Positions 5,431-48,377 of a stretch of 64,000 bases of DNA are shown piece after piece. Location: assembly GCF_022846255.1 (NCBI RefSeq), contig NZ_AP025682.1. The stretch is one strand, 5' to 3'. Positions within the stretch are counted from its first letter, which is position 1. Each line of letters begins with the position of its first letter. The DNA comes from Escherichia coli (GTDB taxonomy: Bacteria > Pseudomonadota > Gammaproteobacteria > Enterobacterales > Enterobacteriaceae). The notes under the pieces are model-generated. The model was given only the letters and a program-made list of their open reading frames with translations, did not search any database and was not told the DNA's origin. A program made the position numbers and the translations under genes.

Positions 5431-7779
5431 CTACTCTTTTACTAATTTTCCACTTTTATCCCAGGCGGAGAATGGCATGGGTTTCTGGTACAGATACCCC
5501 TGAGCCTGAACACATCCTAATTTGATTAATTCACGCGCAACGTCTTCGCTCTCTACGCCTTCCGCAATCACCGGGATCCGGTTATAGCGTGCCAGATCGA
5601 AAATAATGCGCACAATTTTTCCCGCAGTACCGAAAATATCGCCGGTAAATTGCGAATCCACCTTTATACTGTCTGGATTAATTTCATAAAAACGTTTCAG
5701 GTTTGACAAACCGGTGCCAAAGTCATCAATCGATACCCGTACCCCTTGTTTACGCAGTTGTTCAATATTGAGATAGAAATGTTCATTAATTCGCTCGATC
5801 ACGGTTTCGGTGATCTCAACACAAAGGCTGTTCGCCTTCAGGCCATTTTCTTTCATGATGGTAGTAAAACGCTCATGAAAGTGTGGTTCGTTTAACTGCC
5901 AGGGCGAAACATTAATATGCAGTAAGAAATCATCCTTCAGCGACGCACGCTGACTAAAATGTCTGAATTCACCCATCGCGGTTTTAATAATTTGATAGCC
6001 CAGCTCATTGATAAACCCGATATCTTCAGCAATGGTAATGAACTTCAGCGGTGAAATAATCCCCCGCTCCGCAGACACCCAACGGCACAACGCCTCCGCG
6101 CCCAAAATGGTGCGGGTGTTAATATCAACAATCGGTTGATAGACCAGGAATAGTTCGCCAATTTCCATTGCATGGCGAATATTACGCGCAATCCAGATAT
6201 TCTCTTCTATTTCGTTGAGTTTCGCATCATCACAGAAAATAAACTCTGAGAACATATGGTTGCGGATACTGGAAATCGCCAGTTTCAGCTTTTCTGCGTA
6301 ACTCCAGGCGTTTTCCCCCTGCAAAGGTTCACAAATAGCAGACTTATGGATGCGCAGATTGCGGTAGCCAAAACTGCTGTCAAAATCGTTTACCGTCGCT
6401 ATCTTACGGGTAAACGTCTGTACATTTTCCCGGCACAGGAGTAAATAGAGATCGGCATTAAATGTCACGATATCGCAGCATTGCGCATATTTCTCGGCAA
6501 TTCGCTGACACAATTTCCTGACGATTTTATTGCGTTCATCAACACCAAACACCGCTTCCACAGCTTCCAGACCACACAGTTTGATGATCCCCACAGCCAG
6601 ATACTGATTATTGTTGGACTCAATAATCGCCATATTTTTAATAAAACCGCTTTCCTGATCGTAAGAGATCAGCGAGAGCAATTTATTTGCCCGTTCAATT
6701 TCAGCATCTTTCATTTCCGCGATCGAATTTTTGATGCTGATAATCTCTTTCGCATCGCCTTCACGAATCTTCAGGGCCTCGATTTGATCCGTAGAGTCAG
6801 GCAAAAACGCCAGCGTATTGACCAAATCTGTCATTTCAGAAAATTGCCGACGGAACACTCGAGTGGTCATTAAATAAACCACCAGCAATACGATAATAAT
6901 GAAAGCAAACGGCAGATAAAAAAGTTTATCTGATGCGTTCAATAAATTACCACCAGGATAATAAAAATAGATTTCGAATAATGCGTTGTTTGGCACCGCT
7001 GATGTTTTTTCAATATATTCCGTATCGACAGAATCAATAATATTATAATTACCTTCGCTATTATAAATAATCAATTTTTCACGAGCGAGTTGATTCTTAG
7101 CAATGATCTCATGACCTTGCTTTAAAAATAGAACTTCATCATTAGCGCTGATGTGATCAAGATACTCGTTCAGATATCGCCAGTTTAAATCGACATGAAT
7201 TTTATCTACCGCTAACAAATCATGATCTTTGCCGTTGATGTGTAGCGTAAAAGAGATACATTTTTTACCCGGACGATCAAAGCAATTGTATGCCGGGTTC
7301 CAGCTGTTGTTAGAGTCATCTGAAGCCATCGACCACGGTCGTTTCGATGGGTTAAAATCGGCAAAAATAACCCGCCCTGACTCGTCGACAAGCGGTCCAT
7401 TTACTTGTTCCTGATGATAAACAACGATTTTATTATTCGCCCTCCGCGAAAAGAGATAATATTTATTATCATCAAGTACCAGTCCCACCGAGTCTAAAAA
7501 TGGCATCATTTCCATTTTCAGAATTACGGCGCGTTGAATCTCCTCTGTATTTTTTAATAAATACAGTGAGTCCTTTAATGTCAGGGCCGAACGTTCAATA
7601 TCTTTAAAGAAATAGCCAACGTTTTTCTGAATAAGTTCAAAGCGGCTATCGGCACGTTTTACCGCGCGTTCCGATACCAGTTGATAGTTAATGATGAAAA
7701 AAAGACCAATAAATGACAGTGCTGCCAATAAAAATAAAATTATCAGCCTTATCTTTATCTTTTCGTATAAACTCAGCAT
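5431..7779 (-). CDS. pdeI: c-di-GMP phosphodiesterase (EAL) PdeI/YliE with periplasmic sensor region (782 aa)
   Basis: ORF track; TM segments flanking a large N-terminal domain; C-terminal EAL domain; synteny with dgcI. Confidence 0.9.
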
Positions 7780-7955
7780 GTTAATACATTTAACAAAATA
7801 ACTGTCTGAACGCTGTGCCGCTGCAAAATAGTCCCTTGCTGCGGCTTTTTAACCAAATTACCCGATTCTACAAAATCAGCAGAAAGTTACAACACTTGCT
7901 TAGGGCAATAATTTCCTGTGAGGTGATTACCCTTTCAAGCAATATTCAAACGTAA

Positions 7956-8867
7956 CTATCCTTTAATTTTCGGATCCAGCGCATCGCGTAAACCATCGCC
8001 CAACAAATTGAACGCCAGTACGGTCAGAAAAATAGCCAGGGCCGGAAAAACAGCGACATGCGGCGCGATAACCATATCCGCTCGTGCCTCATTGAGCATT
8101 GCTCCCCACTCTGGTGTCGGCGGCTGCGCACCGAGGCCGAGAAATGACAGGCTGGCGGCAGAGATAATCGAGGTGCCAATGCGCATGGTGAAAAACACCA
8201 CGATAGAAGAGACGGTCCCAGGCAAGATATGACGCAACAAAATGGTCATATCGCTGGCACCAATACTGCGTGCTGACTCGATAAAGGTTTGCTGTTTCAA
8301 CACCAGCGTGTTGCCGCGCACCAGCCGGGCAAACGCGGGGATGGAAAAAATGGCGACTGCGATAATCACGTTAGCAATGCCGCTTCCCAACACCGCAACA
8401 ACAGCGATCGCCAGTAAAATACCCGGGAAGGCAAACAGCACATCGCAAATACGCATGATCAGCCGATCCCACCAGCCTTCATAATATCCAGCCAGCAAGC
8501 CCAGCAACGTCCCGATCGCCGCACCGATAAATACGGCAAACACGCCCGCCGCCAGCGAGATTTGCGCACCAACCAGGACACGGCTGAAAATGTCGCGCCC
8601 CAGTGAATCGACACCAAACCAGTGCTGCAAAGAAGGTCCGTTATTCAGATTGTCATAATCAAAATAATTTTCGGCGTCATAGGGAGCGATCCAGCGTGCA
8701 AAAATGGCCACCACAATCAATAAAATAACGAACAATGCGGCGGTCATCGCCATATGCTGACGGCGAAATCGTCGCCAGAATTCATGCCACGGTGTACGTA
8801 CCTGGTCAGGTTTGACCAGTGGCATGGCGTTTAACACCGCCTGACGTCGCCAGTTAAATAGTCGCAT
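7956..8867 (-). CDS. gsiD: glutathione ABC transporter permease GsiD (303 aa)
   Basis: ORF track; Dpp/Opp-type permease; synteny. Confidence 0.92.
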
Positions 8868-20583: not shown

Positions 20584-20728
20584 TCTTCTCAGCCCGGCGG
20601 CGGCGTCGCCGGGCTAAATCATTCACATCATCAATTTCAGCCTCGCTTTCATTCGAAATATAATTTGTGCTCTGCGTCACATTGTTATTACACTGTTACG
20701 GTTTCATTTTCGAGCCAGGAGCACACCT

Positions 20729-21544
20729 ATGAGCGTAAAAGTTATCGTCACAGACATGGACGGTACTTTTCTTAACGACGCCAAAACGTACAACCAACCA
20801 CGTTTTATGGCGCAATATCAGGAACTGAAAAAGCGCGGCATTGAGTTCGTTGTCGCCAGCGGTAATCAGTATTACCAGCTTATTTCGTTCTTTCCTGAGC
20901 TAAAGGATGAGATCTCTTTTGTCGCGGAAAACGGCGCACTGGTTTACGAACATGGCAAGCAGTTGTTCCACGGCGAACTGACCCGACATGAATCGCGGAT
21001 TGTTATTGGCGAGTTGCTAAAAGATAAGCAACTCAATTTTGTCGCCTGCGGTCTGCAAAGTGCATATGTCAGCGAAAATGCCCCCGAAGCATTCGTCGCA
21101 CTGATGGCAAAACACTACCATCGCCTGAAACCTGTAAAAGATTATCAGGAGATTGACGACGTACTGTTCAAGTTTTCGCTCAACCTGCCGGATGAACAAA
21201 TCCCGTTAGTGATCGACAAACTGCACATAGCGCTGGATGGCATTATGAAACCCGTCACCAGTGGTTTTGGCTTTATCGACTTGATTATTCCCGGTCTACA
21301 TAAAGCAAACGGTATTTCGCGGTTACTGAAACGCTGGGATCTGTCACCGCAAAATGTGGTAGCGATTGGCGACAGCGGTAACGATGCGGAGATGCTGAAA
21401 ATGGCCCGTTATTCCTTTGCGATGAGCAATGCTGCGGAAAACATTAAACAAATCGCCCGTTACGCTACCGATGATAATAATCATGAAGGCGCGCTGAATG
21501 TGATTCAGGCGGTGCTGGAAAATAAACCGCCGTTTAATCTTTGA
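20729..21544 (+). CDS. ybiV: HAD-family (Cof-type) sugar phosphatase YbiV (271 aa)
   Basis: ORF track; DMDGT HAD motif I at N-terminus, GDSGND motif near C-terminus. Confidence 0.9.
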
Positions 21545-21582
21545 TTATCGCCAATTCAGTTTATTGAGAAAGTGCATGTCAT

Positions 21583-21683
21583 TATGCCGGATACGGCGTA
21601 ACCGCCTTATTTGGCATACAAAATCATGAAAATTCAATATATTGCGATACACTGCCAGGCCTGATAAGCGTAGCGCACCAGGC
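21583..21683. repeat. BIME-1/RIP-like element: degenerate REP, IHF-like linker, REP
   Basis: gccggatacggcgtaaccgccttatttggc, then linker with tcaatatattg (IHF-like WATCAAnnnnTTR), then gcctgataagcgtagcgcaccaggc; followed by hairpin cagtagccctga...tcagggctactg at about 21709..21737. Confidence 0.75.
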
Positions 21684-21743
21684 AATCTTGCGTTTGTCAT
21701 CAGTTTCAGTAGCCCTGACCACATCAGGGCTACTGATAATAAC

Positions 21744-23336
21744 TTACTCGATCCCTTTACTACGCAGGTAATCTTCGTAATTACCGCTAAAGTCGATCAC
21801 GCGTTCCGGGGTGATTTCCAGAATACGGGTCGCCAGGGAGCTTACGAACTCACGGTCGTGTGAAACAAAGATCAGCGTGCCCTGATACAGTTCCAGCGCC
21901 ATGTTCAGCGACTCAATAGATTCCATATCCAGGTGGTTGGTCGGTTCGTCCATGATCAGAATGTTCGGCTTCTGCATCATTAACTTACCAAACAGCATCC
22001 GCCCTTTCTCCCCACCGGAAAGCACTTTCGCTGGCTTTTTGATGTCGTCCTGGCTGAACAGCAAACGACCGAGAATGCTGCGTACCGCCTGCTCGTCATC
22101 GCCTTCCTGCTTCCACTGGCTCATCCATTCGAACACGGTCAGATCATTTTCAAACTCATATTCGTGGTCCTGAGCGTAGTAACCAATGCGCGCGTTTTCA
22201 GACCATTTTACGGTGCCGCTGTCCGGTTGCAGATCGCCCACCAGCGTTTTCAGCAGCGTTGATTTACCGACGCCGTTGGTACCCAGTACCGCCAGTTTTT
22301 CACCCACTTCCAGCAGCAGGTTGAGATTTTTAAACAGTGGACCGTTATCAAACCCTTTAGTCAGACCTTCCACTTCCAGCGCGTTACGGAACAGTTTCTT
22401 ATCCTGCTCAAAACGGATGAACGGGTTCTGACGGCTGGAGGCTTTCACCTCTTCCAGTTTGATTTTATCAATCTGGCGCGCACGCGAAGTTGCCTGGCGA
22501 GATTTCGAGGCGTTGGCGCTAAAGCGGCTAACGAAAGATTGCAACTCAGCAATCTGCGCTTTCTTCTTGGCGTTATCAGCCAGCAGACGTTCACGCGCCT
22601 GAGTCGCCGCCGTCATGTACTCATCGTAGTTGCCCGGATAAACGCGCAGCTCGCCGTAATCCAGATCCGCCATGTGGGTACAAACCATGTTAAGGAAGTG
22701 ACGGTCGTGCGAGATGATGATCATGGTGCTGTCACGCTCGTTCAGCACCTGTTCCAGCCAGCGAATGGTGTCGATGTCGAGGTTGTTGGTCGGTTCGTCG
22801 AGCAGGAGAATGTCCGGATCAGCAAACAGCGCCTGAGCCAGCAGCACACGCAGCTTCCAGCCAGGAGCAACTTCACTCATCGGGCCGTAGTGCTGTTCCA
22901 CTGGAATTCCCACGCCAAGCAACAGTTCACCAGCGCGAGCTTCCGCAGAGTAACCGTCCATTTCGCCGTATTTCACTTCCAGATCGGCCACTTTATAGCC
23001 GTCTTCTTCACTCATTTCCGGCAAAGCATAGATGCGGTCACGCTCCTGCTTCACTTCCCACAACTCTTTATGCCCCATGATCACCGTATCCAGCACAGTG
23101 AACTCTTCAAAGGCAAACTGATCCTGACGCAGCTTACCAATGCGCTCGTTGGGATCGAGGGAAACGTTACCCAACGTCGGCTCTAAGTCGCCGCCGAGGA
23201 TCTTCATAAAGGTGGATTTACCACTACCGTTCGCGCCAATCAGGCCGTAACGGTTGCCGCCGCCGAATTTGACGGAAATGTTTTCAAACAACGGCTTACT
23301 GCCGAACTGCATGGTGACGTTACTGGAAACTAACAC
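21744..23336 (-). CDS. ybiT: ABC-F family ATPase YbiT, tandem ABC domains (530 aa)
   Basis: ORF track; two Walker A motifs ([18 protein letters not shown]); no TM domain. Confidence 0.92.
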
Positions 23337-30088: not shown

Positions 30089-30213
30089 ATTTACATTTCT
30101 GCATGGTTATGCATAACCATGCAGATTTTCTCGCTACTTTTCCTCTACACCGTCTTTATATATCGAATTATGCAAAAGCATATTTATTCCGAAAATTCCT
30201 GGCGAGCAAATAA

Positions 30214-30891
<678 letters not shown>

Positions 30892-36823: not shown

Positions 36824-37098
36824 AGCATTCTCCTTTAAGCAGCGGCGTAAGATACTCGCATAACGCGACAGGGTAAATATCTGGCTGCGTTTATCATTTC
36901 TAAAAACCTTCACATGGATATGGTTTATGGCAATTCACCATAAAAATCATCATCATGCATGTCATTGATTTGTCTTATTTTGTAAAAATATATCGTTCAA
37001 AAAATAAGCGCATCTCTGTCAATTTTTTGCGTCATTTTCATCGCGCAGGCGACCTACACTTATCTGGCACTACCCGTTGTATTTATGAGGATGTCATT

Positions 37099-37359
37099 AT
37101 GAAAAAGTGCCTCACACTACTGATTGCCACCGTCCTGAGCGGAATCTCTCTCACGGCTTATGCCGCGCAACCGATGAGTAACCTGGACAGAGGTCAACTA
37201 CGGCCCGCCGGTACCGTTTCGGCAACTGGCGCATCAAACCTAAGCGATCTGGAGGATAAACTGGCAGAAAAAGCGCGCGAACAAGGCGCGAAAGGTTATG
37301 TCATTAATTCCGCAGGCGGAAATGACCAGATGTTCGGTACTGCAATCATCTACAAATAA
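37099..37359 (+). CDS. mcbA: DUF1471/YhcN-family small periplasmic protein McbA/YbiM (86 aa)
   Basis: ORF track trimmed to MKKCLTLLIATVLSGISLTAYA with GAGGA RBS; C-terminal GTAIIYK. Confidence 0.85.
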   Translation: MKKCLTLLIATVLSGISLTAYAAQPMSNLDRGQLRPAGTVSATGASNLSDLEDKLAEKAREQGAKGYVINSAGGNDQMFGTAIIYK

Positions 37360-37494
37360 CCCCACCAACGTAACTGCATTCGTCTCTGGATGCAGTTTTC
37401 GTCCGATTTGTAAGCAAAAAACATCAAATATGAACGCAATGTAAATAAATGTATTTCTTTTTCGCGCAATGGGTGATAGAAAATCGCGCCAAGT

Positions 37495-37519
37495 GATAAT
37501 GCTTATCAAAATTATTATC
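37495..37519 (+). promoter_or_regulatory. Fur box upstream of fiu
   Basis: gataatgcttatcaaaattattatc, close to GATAATGATAATCATTATC, about 105 nt upstream of the fiu ATG. Confidence 0.8.
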
Positions 37520-37623
37520 ACTTGCACGTACGCTATCACGGGATTAACAGTGGCATCGCATCCGCAGAGATGCTTTCTCGTGACAGTGAAAATTTCACCA
37601 TATAAGAAAAAGTCACCTGCAAA

Positions 37624-39906
37624 ATGGAAAACAATCGCAATTTCCCTGCCAGACAATTTCATTCGCTCACGTTCTTTGCCGGTCTTTGTATTGGTATTAC
37701 GCCTGTGGCACAGGCACTCGCTGCCGAAGGGCAAGCTAACGCGGATGACACGCTGGTTGTCGAAGCATCAACGCCTTCGCTTTATGCGCCACAACAATCT
37801 GCCGATCCGAAATTCTCGCGTCCGGTAGCGGATACTACCCGCACGATGACGGTGATTTCTGAACAAGTGATTAAAGATCAGGGTGCAACCAACCTTACCG
37901 ACGCACTCAAAAACGTCCCCGGCGTGGGTGCGTTTTTTGCGGGTGAGAACGGTAACTCCACCACTGGCGACGCCATTTATATGCGCGGTGCCGATACCTC
38001 TAACAGTATTTATATCGATGGCATTCGCGATATCGGCAGCGTCTCGCGCGACACCTTCAATACCGAGCAGGTCGAAGTAATTAAAGGGCCGTCCGGCACC
38101 GACTACGGGCGCAGCGCACCGACAGGCTCGATCAATATGATCAGCAAACAGCCGCGCAATGATTCCGGCATTGACGCCTCCGCCAGTATTGGCAGCGCCT
38201 GGTTCCGCCGCGGCACGCTGGACGTCAATCAGGTCATTGGTGATACCACTGCGGTGCGCCTGAATGTAATGGGCGAAAAAACGCACGATGCCGGACGCGA
38301 CAAAGTCAAAAATGAGCGTTACGGCGTCGCCCCTTCTGTCGCTTTTGGCCTTGGTACAGCGAATCGTTTGTATCTTAATTATCTGCATGTCACCCAGCAC
38401 AACACGCCAGACGGCGGCATTCCGACCATCGGTTTACCGGGTTATTCTGCCCCATCTGCGGGAACAGCAGCCCTGAATCATTCCGGAAAAGTTGATACTC
38501 ATAACTTTTACGGCACAGATTCCGATTACGACGATTCGACCACCGACACCGCTACCATGCGTTTTGAGCACGACATCAACGATAACACCACCATTCGCAA
38601 CACTACGCGTTGGTCGCGCGTAAAGCAGGATTACCTGATGACGGCGATTATGGGTGGAGCGTCGAATATTACCCAGCCCACCAGCGATGTGAATAGCTGG
38701 ACGTGGTCACGCACGGCGAATACCAAAGATGTGAGTAACAAAATTCTCACCAACCAGACCAACCTGACCTCGACGTTCTATACCGGCGCTATCGGTCATG
38801 ATCTCAGTACCGGCGTGGAATTTACCCGCGAAACACAGACTAACTATGGCGTTAATCCGGTGACGTTACCGGCGGTAAATATTTATCATCCTGACAGCAG
38901 CATTCATCCCGGCGGCCTGACGCGCAACGGCGCAAACGCCAATGGTCAGACGGATACCTTCGCAATTTATGCCTTCGATACGCTGCAAATCACCCGTGAT
39001 TTTGAGCTGAACGGCGGGATCCGTCTGGATAATTATCATACTGAATATGACAGTGCTACCGCCTGCGGCGGCAGCGGGCGCGGTGCCATCACCTGCCCTG
39101 CTGGCGTGGCAAAAGGTTCTCCGGTCACCACCGTCGACACCGCCAAGTCGGGCAATCTGGTGAACTGGAAAGCCGGGGCGCTGTATCACCTGACGGAAAA
39201 CGGCAATGTCTATATTAACTATGCCGTTTCCCAGCAGCCGCCGGGCGGCAACAACTTCGCCCTTGCGCAGTCTGGCAGCGGTAACAGTGCCAACCGCACC
39301 GATTTTAAACCACAAAAAGCCAACACCAGCGAGATTGGCACCAAATGGCAGGTTCTGGATAAACGCCTGCTACTTACCGCCGCGCTGTTCCGTACTGATA
39401 TTGAAAATGAAGTTGAGCAAAATGATGACGGGACTTATTCGCAATATGGTAAGAAACGTGTCGAAGGCTACGAGATATCCGTGGCCGGGAATATCACCCC
39501 CGCATGGCAGATGATTGGCGGCTATACCCAGCAAAAAGCAACTATCAAAAACGGCAAAGATGTTGCCCAGGATGGTTCCTCATCGCTGCCGTATACCCCG
39601 GAACACGCCTTCACCTTATGGAGCCAGTATCAGGCAACCGATGATATTTCTGTTGGTGCGGGCGCACGGTATATCGGCAGTATGCATAAAGTTTCAGACG
39701 GCGCGGTGGGGACGCCAGCATTTACCGAAGGTTATTGGGTCGCCGACGCCAAACTGGGGTATCGGGTTAATCGCAATCTCGACTTCCAGCTAAACGTCTA
39801 CAACCTGTTTGATACCGATTACGTCGCCTCAATCAATAAGAGCGGCTACCGTTATCACCCGGGCGAGCCAAGAACCTTCTTGCTCACAGCTAATATGCAT
39901 TTCTGA
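37624..39906 (+). CDS. fiu: TonB-dependent catecholate siderophore receptor Fiu (760 aa)
   Basis: ORF track; signal peptide, TonB box, C-terminal aromatic residue ...NMHF. Confidence 0.95.
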   Translation: MENNRNFPARQFHSLTFFAGLCIGITPVAQALAAEGQANADDTLVVEASTPSLYAPQQSADPKFSRPVADTTRTMTVISEQVIKDQGATNLTDALKNVPGVGAFFAGENGNSTTGDAIYMRGADTSNSIYIDGIRDIGSVSRDTFNTEQVEVIKGPSGTDYGRSAPTGSINMISKQPRNDSGIDASASIGSAWFRRGTLDVNQVIGDTTAVRLNVMGEKTHDAGRDKVKNERYGVAPSVAFGLGTANRLYLNYLHVTQHNTPDGGIPTIGLPGYSAPSAGTAALNHSGKVDTHNFYGTDSDYDDSTTDTATMRFEHDINDNTTIRNTTRWSRVKQDYLMTAIMGGASNITQPTSDVNSWTWSRTANTKDVSNKILTNQTNLTSTFYTGAIGHDLSTGVEFTRETQTNYGVNPVTLPAVNIYHPDSSIHPGGLTRNGANANGQTDTFAIYAFDTLQITRDFELNGGIRLDNYHTEYDSATACGGSGRGAITCPAGVAKGSPVTTVDTAKSGNLVNWKAGALYHLTENGNVYINYAVSQQPPGGNNFALAQSGSGNSANRTDFKPQKANTSEIGTKWQVLDKRLLLTAALFRTDIENEVEQNDDGTYSQYGKKRVEGYEISVAGNITPAWQMIGGYTQQKATIKNGKDVAQDGSSSLPYTPEHAFTLWSQYQATDDISVGAGARYIGSMHKVSDGAVGTPAFTEGYWVADAKLGYRVNRNLDFQLNVYNLFDTDYVASINKSGYRYHPGEPRTFLLTANMHF

Positions 39907-39956
39907 TTCAGATGTGGGGCGCAAGGCTCACTAATGTTGATGGCGAGAGCAGGACT

Positions 39957-40054
39957 GCCTGATGCGCTGCGCTTATCAGGCCTACAAGGTTGTGCAATAC
40001 ACTGAATTCACATCATTTGGTAGGCCGGATAAGGCGTTCACGCCGCATCCGGCA
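39957..40054. repeat. BIME: two inverted REP units with a roughly 34-nt linker
   Basis: gcctgatgcgctgcgcttatcaggcctac ... gtaggccggataaggcgttcacgccgcatccggca. Confidence 0.85.
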
Positions 40055-40084
40055 CCTGAGCACCATTGCCTGCTGTTAAAAATC

Positions 40085-40110
40085 GGTGTGGGGCGCAGGC
40101 CCCACTTTTT
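40085..40110 (+). terminator. hairpin plus T5 just upstream of ybiX
   Basis: gtgggg-cgcag-gcccca-c stem followed by TTTTT, 12 nt before the ybiX ATG. Confidence 0.5.
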
Positions 40111-40121
40111 GGAGAACTTGT

Positions 40122-40799
40122 ATGATGTACCACATTCCCGGCGTGTTATCGCCACAGGACGTCGCCCGTTTTCGCGAACAACTGGAACAAGCCGAATGGG
40201 TGGATGGGCGCGTCACCACCGGCGCACAAGGTGCGCAAGTTAAGAACAATCAACAAGTAGACACCCGCAGCGCCCTGTACGCCGCCCTGCAAAATGAGGT
40301 GCTGAACGCGGTTAACCAACATGCTTTGTTCTTTGCCGCGGCCTTGCCGCGTACCCTTTCCACGCCGCTGTTTAATCGCTATCAGAACAATGAAACCTAT
40401 GGTTTTCATGTGGATGGCGCAGTACGCAGCCATCCACAAAACGGCTGGATGCGCACTGACCTTTCTGCCACGCTGTTTTTAAGCGATCCAGAAAGCTACG
40501 ACGGCGGCGAACTGGTCGTTAATGACACCTTCGGGCAACATCGGGTAAAACTCCCGGCAGGCGATCTGGTGTTGTATCCCTCCAGCAGCCTGCATTGCGT
40601 GACACCCGTAACCCGCGGCGTGCGAGTGGCATCATTTATGTGGATCCAGTCGATGATCCGCGATGATAAAAAGCGCGCCATGCTGTTTGAACTGGACAAC
40701 AATATTCAGTCGCTGAAAAGCCACTACGGCGAAAGTGAAGAGATCCTGTCGCTGCTCAATCTTTATCATAATCTGCTGCGGGAATGGTCGGAGATCTGA
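40122..40799 (+). CDS. ybiX: Fe(II)/2-oxoglutarate-dependent PKHD-type hydroxylase YbiX (225 aa)
   Basis: ORF track trimmed to [12 protein letters not shown]; HxD...H iron motif (FHVDGAV ... SSLHCVT). Confidence 0.9.
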
Positions 40800-40872
40800 C
40801 GCTTGAACTGCCCGAGTTCGTCCCTATATTAGCTACACTTAACTGTACAAGCATTGATATGGGGAGGACGAT

Positions 40873-41139
40873 ATGGCATCCGGTTGGGCTAATGATGACG
40901 CCGTCAACGAACAGATCAACAGTACAATTGAAGATGCGATTGCCCGCGCTCGGGGTGAAATTCCGCGTGGCGAAAGCCTGTATGAATGTGAAGAGTGCGG
41001 AGCCCTCATCCCGCAGGCCCGTCGGGAAGCCATTCCTGGCGTGCGCTTATGCATTCATTGTCAGCAGGAGAAAGATTTACAAAAACCAGATTATACAGGA
41101 TATAATCGCAGAGGTTCGAAAGACAGCCAGTTACGTTAA
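40873..41139 (+). CDS. ybiI: DksA/TraR-family C4 zinc-finger protein YbiI (88 aa)
   Basis: ORF track; CxxC-N17-CxxC (YECEECGALI...LCIHCQQ). Confidence 0.9.
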   Translation: MASGWANDDAVNEQINSTIEDAIARARGEIPRGESLYECEECGALIPQARREAIPGVRLCIHCQQEKDLQKPDYTGYNRRGSKDSQLR

Positions 41140-41403
41140 CTACAACTGGCGGGATGTATAGCGAATATAATTTGGATTTTGCGTGGCATTCCGTGCCTTT
41201 AACGCTACCGTGACTGCCACGCGGTATAAAACAAGTTCATAAGTACAACAAATAAATGGTTTATCAGTATGTTAGATATCAATCAATTTATTTGAACAAG
41301 GCGGTCAATTCTCTTCGATTTTATCTCTCGAAAAAAAACGTGATACTCATCACATCGACGAAACAACGTCACTTATACAAAAATCACCTGCGAGAGATTA
41401 ATT

Positions 41404-48149: not shown

Positions 48150-48377
48150 AACTACTCCGAACCGCCCCGACCGTTACCGGTGTAGTTTTCAGGGAGATAC
48201 TGAAAAGGAAAATGACAAAAACCACAATGTCATGAGGGAGCGGAGTGTAGCAGTTTTTGTGACGCAGCGCATAAATTATCCCTGTGACTGGCGTAGCTAA
48301 AATTCTTAGCCATACTGGACAACTCCCCTATGGAGTCATAATCTTAATCAATCATTTGATTAAGAATGGACTGTGCG

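Follow-up and report, generated by a model that had tools for sequence, protein, structure and literature searches.

A three-site Fur operator array at the fiu promoter of an Escherichia coli chromosome of the CFT073/Nissle type

The 25-bp element gataatgcttatcaaaattattatc (GATAAT-N13-ATTATC) upstream of fiu very probably belongs to the Fur operator of the fiu promoter, where Fur would block transcription initiation from a 34-bp array of three sites when iron is replete. We put the probability of this reading at about 0.93. The element was read at positions 37495-37519 of the 64-kb stretch of DNA that was analysed (the window), which agrees with the position given for it earlier. The original prediction was that this is a Fur site 5' of fiu and that fiu is repressed by iron, and on this point matrix scans, ChIP-exo data and derepression in Δfur strains agree. 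The reported 25-mer is the core of the array, and the functional unit is larger, extending from 37492 to 37525. That fiu has a Fur operator is already known from regulatory catalogues and genome-wide binding data.

The window derives from an E. coli chromosome of the CFT073/Nissle type. The element sits inside the 264-bp mcbA-fiu intergenic region, 105-129 nt 5' of the fiu ATG (37624). Since mcbA, fiu, ybiX and ybiI are all on the plus strand (Table 1), the window is oriented opposite to K-12 numbering. The 4 kb around the Fur box are 99.8-99.9% identical to many E. coli genomes in which these four genes are annotated. The intergenic region equals that of CFT073 except for three N's in the CFT073 record, and the 91 bp around the box are identical in Nissle 1917. 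Compared with K-12, 13 of 267 intergenic positions differ, none of them inside 37489-37523, and the 25-mer itself is the same in the window, K-12 and CFT073.

Table 1. Features of the mcbA-fiu-ybiX-ybiI region in window coordinates. Scores are given for the intergenic/window background, and ranks refer to the whole window.
Feature	Position	Strand	Remarks
mcbA	37099-37359	+	
Conserved AT-rich block AATGTAAATAAATGTATTTCTTTTTC	37437-37462	+	about -55 to -30 from start; invariant columns in alignment A1
Alternative sigma-70 promoter, consensus-predicted	37473-37500	+	9/12 matches
Candidate extended -10, TGaTAGAAA (inferred)	37474-37482	+	7-10 nt 5' of published starts
fiu start site (C)	37489	+	from 840889; 5'UTR 135 nt
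fiu start site (A)	37492	+	from 840886; 5'UTR 132 nt
Fur operator array	37492-37525		34 bp; three overlapping 19-bp sites, exactly 6 bp offset; PWM scans
7-1-7 site	37492-37510		10.6/13.1 bits; rank 5/6
Classical site	37495-37513		12.4/15.6 bits; rank 1
7-1-7 site	37498-37516		13.3/17.2 bits; rank 2
Classical site	37501-37519		4.7/8.0 bits; outside top 12
7-1-7 site	37504-37522		12.7/16.8 bits; rank 3
Classical site	37507-37525		9.2/11.8 bits; rank 7/4
fiu, catecholate siderophore receptor (760 aa), regulated gene	37624-39906	+	
fiu-ybiX spacer	39907-40121	+	215 bp in window and CFT073, 41 bp in K-12 and KO11FL
ybiX, PKHD-type hydroxylase, downstream gene	40122-40799	+	
ybiI	40873-41139	+	

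Mismatches were counted against the 19-bp Fur consensus GATAATGATAATCATTATC. Positions 37495-37513 agree with it at 15/19 positions, counted on the reverse complement of this slightly non-palindromic sequence, and positions 37501-37519 at 14/19. Such values are in the usual range among working Fur boxes. The box had originally been described as near-consensus. Its resemblance to a Fur site holds, but its closeness to the consensus does not: no 19-mer in the whole 64-kb window lies within 3 mismatches of it, so that near-consensus is too generous and the match is better called moderate. Read as hexamers, the 25-mer contains GATAAT (6/6), GCTTAT (4/6), CAAAAT (4/6) and TATTAT (4/6), with a perfect inverted ATTATC at its end. 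Fur operators are described as three or more NAT(A/T)AT hexamers in a row, or as overlapping sites with a 6-bp spacing, and the box fits this description.

Position weight matrices (PWMs) were built from 19 other Fur-regulated intergenic regions of K-12, with fiu excluded from training. The set comprised fepA/fes, fepD/entS, fepB/entC, fhuA, fhuE, cirA, tonB, exbB, fecA, fecI, feoA, fhuF/yjjZ, sodA, sufA, nrdH, fur, bfd, yncD/yncE and mntH. Motif discovery on these regions used a palindromic one-site-per-sequence EM procedure. When seeded with the consensus it converged on GAAAATGATAATCATTTTC, the classical register, and the unseeded run of best likelihood gave AATGATAATCATTATCATT, which is the same motif moved by 3 bp, i.e., the 7-1-7 or 'M9' register. 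Two further solutions, TGATTAATAATATTAATCA and TTATCATTAATAATGATAA, had a lower likelihood than these two registers and were dropped. The scan gave a positive result, as the fiu-free matrices place the box at ranks 1 to 3 of the window. It agrees with an information-theory scan of the genome in which the fiu cluster consisted of four walkers over 37 bp, the strongest (17.2 bits) at NC_000913.2 840877, -123 from the start codon (Chen et al., 2007; PMC2189734). This position maps to 37501 in the window, the centre of the 37492-37510 site. The individual sites are not exceptional: the best scores, 12.4 and 13.3 bits, fall below the training-site medians of 14.2 and 17.1 bits, which are themselves inflated because the same sites trained the matrices.

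Such a match could in principle be a chance product of an AT-rich promoter with -10-like hexamers (GATAAT, TATTAT), Fur control being exerted elsewhere or indirectly. We therefore consider single sites and their arrangement separately, using 200 Markov-1 simulated versions of the window. The best single-site score was equalled in 22% (classical) and 10% (7-1-7) of the simulated windows, so that a single site is not beyond chance and is unconvincing alone. A chance origin would also suit the eight 19-mers with at most 5 mismatches found in the real window (1.1 expected) and the fact that GATAAT is predicted as a -10 hexamer as well. The arrangement, however, is beyond chance. Adding up the scores of the three sites at 6-bp spacing gives 35.5 bits (classical) and 47.1 bits (7-1-7), compared with simulation maxima of 27.0 and 38.5 bits. 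The array is thus the top Fur cluster in the 64 kb and scores above all of the 200 simulations; the runner-up among real clusters has 21.8 and 26.2 bits. Nor did the PWM scan find a further Fur-like site in the mcbA-fiu intergenic region from which Fur could act instead.

The position of the array is conserved as well, which again argues against chance. Taking one genome per species, we collected 39 full-length fiu loci of about 5.3 kb each from nine genera (Escherichia, Citrobacter, Klebsiella, Raoultella, Silvania, Pseudocitrobacter, Leclercia, Enterobacter and Pantoea). In 39/39 loci the best 7-1-7 match of the entire locus lies 5' of fiu, at a distance of 105-135 nt in 38 of them and of 197 nt in one MAG. 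The number of Fur sites per locus varies from one to five, and wherever there are several they keep the exact 6-bp register. In an alignment of 16 sequences (A1), the block TGATAATGcTTATCAaAATcATTATCA is the most conserved stretch of the fiu upstream region. Within the species, the 35-bp core 37489-37523 has at least 99% identity in 4645 of 5426 complete E. coli genomes, and the 91 bp surrounding the box reach this level in only 115 records.

Fur occupancy and Fur-dependent repression at this position come from published experiments, which we mapped to the window. Fur ChIP-exo peaks obtained under iron-replete conditions (Gao et al., 2023; PMC10164565) were placed by means of gene coordinates, with NC_017660.1 used in place of NC_016902.1. 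Peak P24 of MG1655 (840869-840893) corresponds to 37485-37509, peaks P32 and P33 of CFT073 to 37517-37529 and 37483-37495, and peaks P256 and P257 of KO11FL to 37485-37497 and 37519-37531. The 13-bp peak pairs enclose the predicted array almost precisely, with outer limits of 37483-37531. Inspection of published ChIP data, which had been suggested as a check of the box, thus revealed occupancy on it or flanking it within about 10 bp in three strains. With this, a chance match can be regarded as effectively refuted already, and we consider it extremely improbable.

The response of fiu to loss of Fur is large. In the same study, log2 fold changes (Δfur/wild-type) of 5.47 in MG1655, 10.03 in W3110 and 6.20 in CFT073 were reported, and the remaining six strains gave 8.35, 5.19, 8.04, 7.09, 6.53 and 5.83 (PMC10164565). 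Over the nine strains the range of 5.2-10.0 corresponds to 36- to 1000-fold derepression, and fiu is within their 36-gene core Fur regulon (PMC10164565). The upstream gene mcbA was unchanged in the MG1655 Δfur strain (0.40, not significant; PMC10164565). A fiu promoter-lacZ fusion was likewise repressed by Fur (Beauchene et al., 2015). As to in vitro binding at fiu, neither a footprint nor a gel shift was found in the papers covered, and the fiu entry in the table of Chen et al. (2007; PMC2189734) has neither the footprint (F) nor the gel-shift (G) flag.

Because ArcA binds in the fiu promoter region and the annotated regulators include CRP, Fur is not the sole input at fiu. A strong ArcA ChIP-seq peak is located 5' of the gene, with centres at 840921 and 840928 and heights of 14.8 and 9.9; no ArcA motif was assigned to it, and Fur and CRP are the annotated regulators (Park et al., 2013). 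Differences in fiu expression that depend on O2 remain without Fur, according to published data. One could accordingly read the element as primarily an operator for a different regulator (for example ArcA, CRP, H-NS or another Fur-family protein like Zur), with Fur in a secondary role. The ArcA centres, however, map to 37457 and 37450, about 45 bp 5' of the Fur box, and fall on a conserved block that is separate from the Fur array (37437-37462). This block carries the direct repeat TGTAAAtaaaTGTATTT (TGTAAAt/TGTATTt, 10 bp apart), of which GTAAA and GT.TT are fully conserved from Escherichia through Pantoea. The block could serve as a non-canonical ArcA site, as a UP/-35 region, or as both. 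The size of the Δfur effect, the agreement of the box with the Fur matrix and a 6-bp phasing that is specific to arrays of Fur sites further speak against a minor role of Fur. Operators of Zur, Mur and Nur are also AT-rich palindromes bound by dimers of the Fur fold. Their consensus sequences differ from that of Fur, and the ChIP and knockout data at the fiu site concern Fur itself. An operator chiefly serving another regulator is thus very unlikely, and assignment of the element to Fur is retained.

To relate the array to the promoter, we used the start sites in the supplement of Kim et al. (2012), NC_000913.2 840889 and 840886, with 5 reads each, and positioned them in the window by means of the upstream sequences listed there. 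They lie at the upstream edge of the array, which therefore overlaps the core promoter and start and extends from +1 to about +34, with the ChIP-exo borders at about -7 and +42. The candidate extended -10 fits these starts, and its T37474, G37475 and A37478 are invariant in the nine genera, from Escherichia to Pantoea. The alternative promoter would combine a -35 GTGATA (37473-78), a 16-nt spacer and a -10 GATAAT (37495-500), the latter inside the first Fur hexamer. We rank this second because no mapped start supports GATAAT and several Citrobacter species lack its A2. It is kept as an alternative since the mapped starts have few reads, obtained from cells where fiu was probably repressed; the GATAAT promoter could be used under iron starvation. 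Under either -10 reading, the Fur operator overlaps the core promoter.

RNA polymerase touches promoter DNA to about +20. Fur at +1 to +34 should therefore exclude the polymerase or stop open-complex formation. In the mechanism we propose, Fe2+-loaded Fur dimers would occupy the three overlapping 19-bp sites, which have a 6-bp offset and lie on different helix faces, and cover DNA that RNA polymerase needs, so that initiation at fiu would not occur. When iron is scarce, Fur would leave the DNA and fiu would be transcribed, the transcript presumably continuing past a weak hairpin into ybiX and in some strains also into ybiI. An Rfam search of 36900-41200 gave no match to a riboswitch or to a leader family within the fiu 5'UTR. 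A terminator-like hairpin in the 5'UTR, GCATC-N6-GATGC followed by a T-rich run (37558-37573), was rejected, as its stem is broken by the K-12 SNP at 37571. It is probably non-functional and lies in a region without conservation among the genera.

The original prediction extended iron repression, with less confidence, to ybiX. This holds in eight strains, in which log2 fold changes of 4.5-7.1 for ybiX were found upon loss of Fur; in MG1655 the values were 5.21 for ybiX and 3.04 for ybiI (PMC10164565). In K-12, ybiX is expressed at about one-fifth of the fiu level and rises 37-fold in Δfur. The fiu-ybiX spacer contains no Fur-like site in the PWM scans (best scores -0.45 and -2.9 bits) and no sigma-70-like promoter in the promoter scan, which implies that iron control of ybiX occurs via read-through from the fiu promoter. 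Among these eight strains, the published unit calls covered by the analysis were those of MG1655, W3110 and KO11FL, and all three include ybiX (PMC10164565).

In the strain type of the window, the spacer is 174 bp longer than in K-12. The additional DNA is made up of a BIME (two REP elements) and, in degenerate form, a second copy of a hairpin arm, and a sub-threshold Rfam match to the REP-derived naRNA4 was found in the spacer (36900-41200 searched). The insertion is flanked by one degenerate and one intact copy of the hairpin GTGGGGCGCAGGCCCCAC. The hairpin, followed by T5, lies at 40088-40105, just 5' of the ybiX start codon, and is terminator-like. At least 555 of 5426 E. coli genomes, CFT073 and Nissle 1917 among them, have the BIME allele in full.

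The Fur box might consequently repress fiu and not ybiX in this strain, the BIME and hairpin uncoupling ybiX from the fiu promoter. Apart from the spacer length and the hairpin, what points in this direction is that in CFT073, of the tested strains the only one with the insertion, the transcription unit was called as fiu alone and no ybiX value was given, whereas the eight other strains all have such a value (Gao et al., PMC10164565). The blank could, however, be an artefact of orthology or annotation and not a measurement. K-12 also has the hairpin before ybiX, yet its ybiX still responds strongly, so that the hairpin is an attenuator at most. Moreover, a spacer lacking a promoter-like or Fur site offers no obvious alternative promoter for ybiX. 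We consider uncoupling in this strain unlikely, and co-regulation of ybiX by the fiu Fur box plausible for the BIME-bearing type too. It is similarly doubtful that the 174-bp BIME, which about 10% of E. coli genomes carry, in general weakens or breaks the link of ybiX, and with it of ybiI, to the fiu promoter and its Fur control. If it did, the Fur box would govern a shorter operon than in K-12, and REP elements would have caused strain-specific rewiring of a core Fur unit.

The element is the same as the Fur site of K-12 fiu (Chen et al., 2007; Gao et al., 2023), with an identical 25-mer and 35-bp core at an equal position. The window differs only by flanking SNPs at 37488, 37524 and 37529-32 and by the downstream BIME insertion. 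Like the operators of fepA-fes, fepB-entC, fhuA, cirA, fhuF and sodA, it has AT-rich hexamers of the GATAAT type and overlapping sites with 6-bp offsets, it overlaps the core promoter or start, and it mediates repression under iron-replete conditions. It differs from these classical operators in that the individual fiu sites are weaker than their median, and in that the array is located at and after the mapped start instead of over the -35 and -10 elements.

That Fur represses fiu belongs to the textbook picture of iron homeostasis, and the importance of the result lies mainly in correct annotation. Fiu imports catecholate siderophores and siderophore-conjugated antibiotics, and an effect of Fur and iron control on susceptibility is already known. 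Modestly new, and descriptive, are the three-site phased array at +1 to +34, its conservation in nine enterobacterial genera, and the REP/BIME insertion in this strain type, which might change the coupling of ybiX to fiu.

Other Fur-like sites occur elsewhere in the window. The near-perfect palindrome AATAAGAATTGTTCTTATT at 30213-30231, 157-175 nt 5' of dps, is the best single 7-1-7 matrix match of the whole window (15.1 bits), and a published Fur ChIP-exo peak of KO11FL maps to 30222-30234. The parts of the other strains' published peak lists that were covered contain no dps peak. Expression of dps changes only mildly in Δfur, with log2 values of -0.43, -1.72 and +1.58 in three strains. An AT-rich stretch at about 6600-8700 has many weak Fur-like matches, e.g., GATAATATTTATTATCATC at 7455-7473 (15/19). 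A PWM match at 48334-48352, 5' of cecR, was examined as the counterpart of the KO11FL 'ybiH' Fur peak and rejected, as the peak lies inside rhlE, 934-946 nt 5' of cecR. In the annotation of Nissle-type genomes, ybiU is missing between ybiV and ybiT (window about 20727-23334), so the Fur and ArcA peaks at ybiT-ybiU of K-12 have no simple counterpart here. The ybiI-ybiJ intergenic region has a weak Fur-like site (41160-41178, 7.3 bits), and ybiJ is mildly derepressed in Δfur, with log2 fold changes of 1.24 in MG1655 (PMC10164565) and 3.08 in W3110, which could equally be due to read-through.
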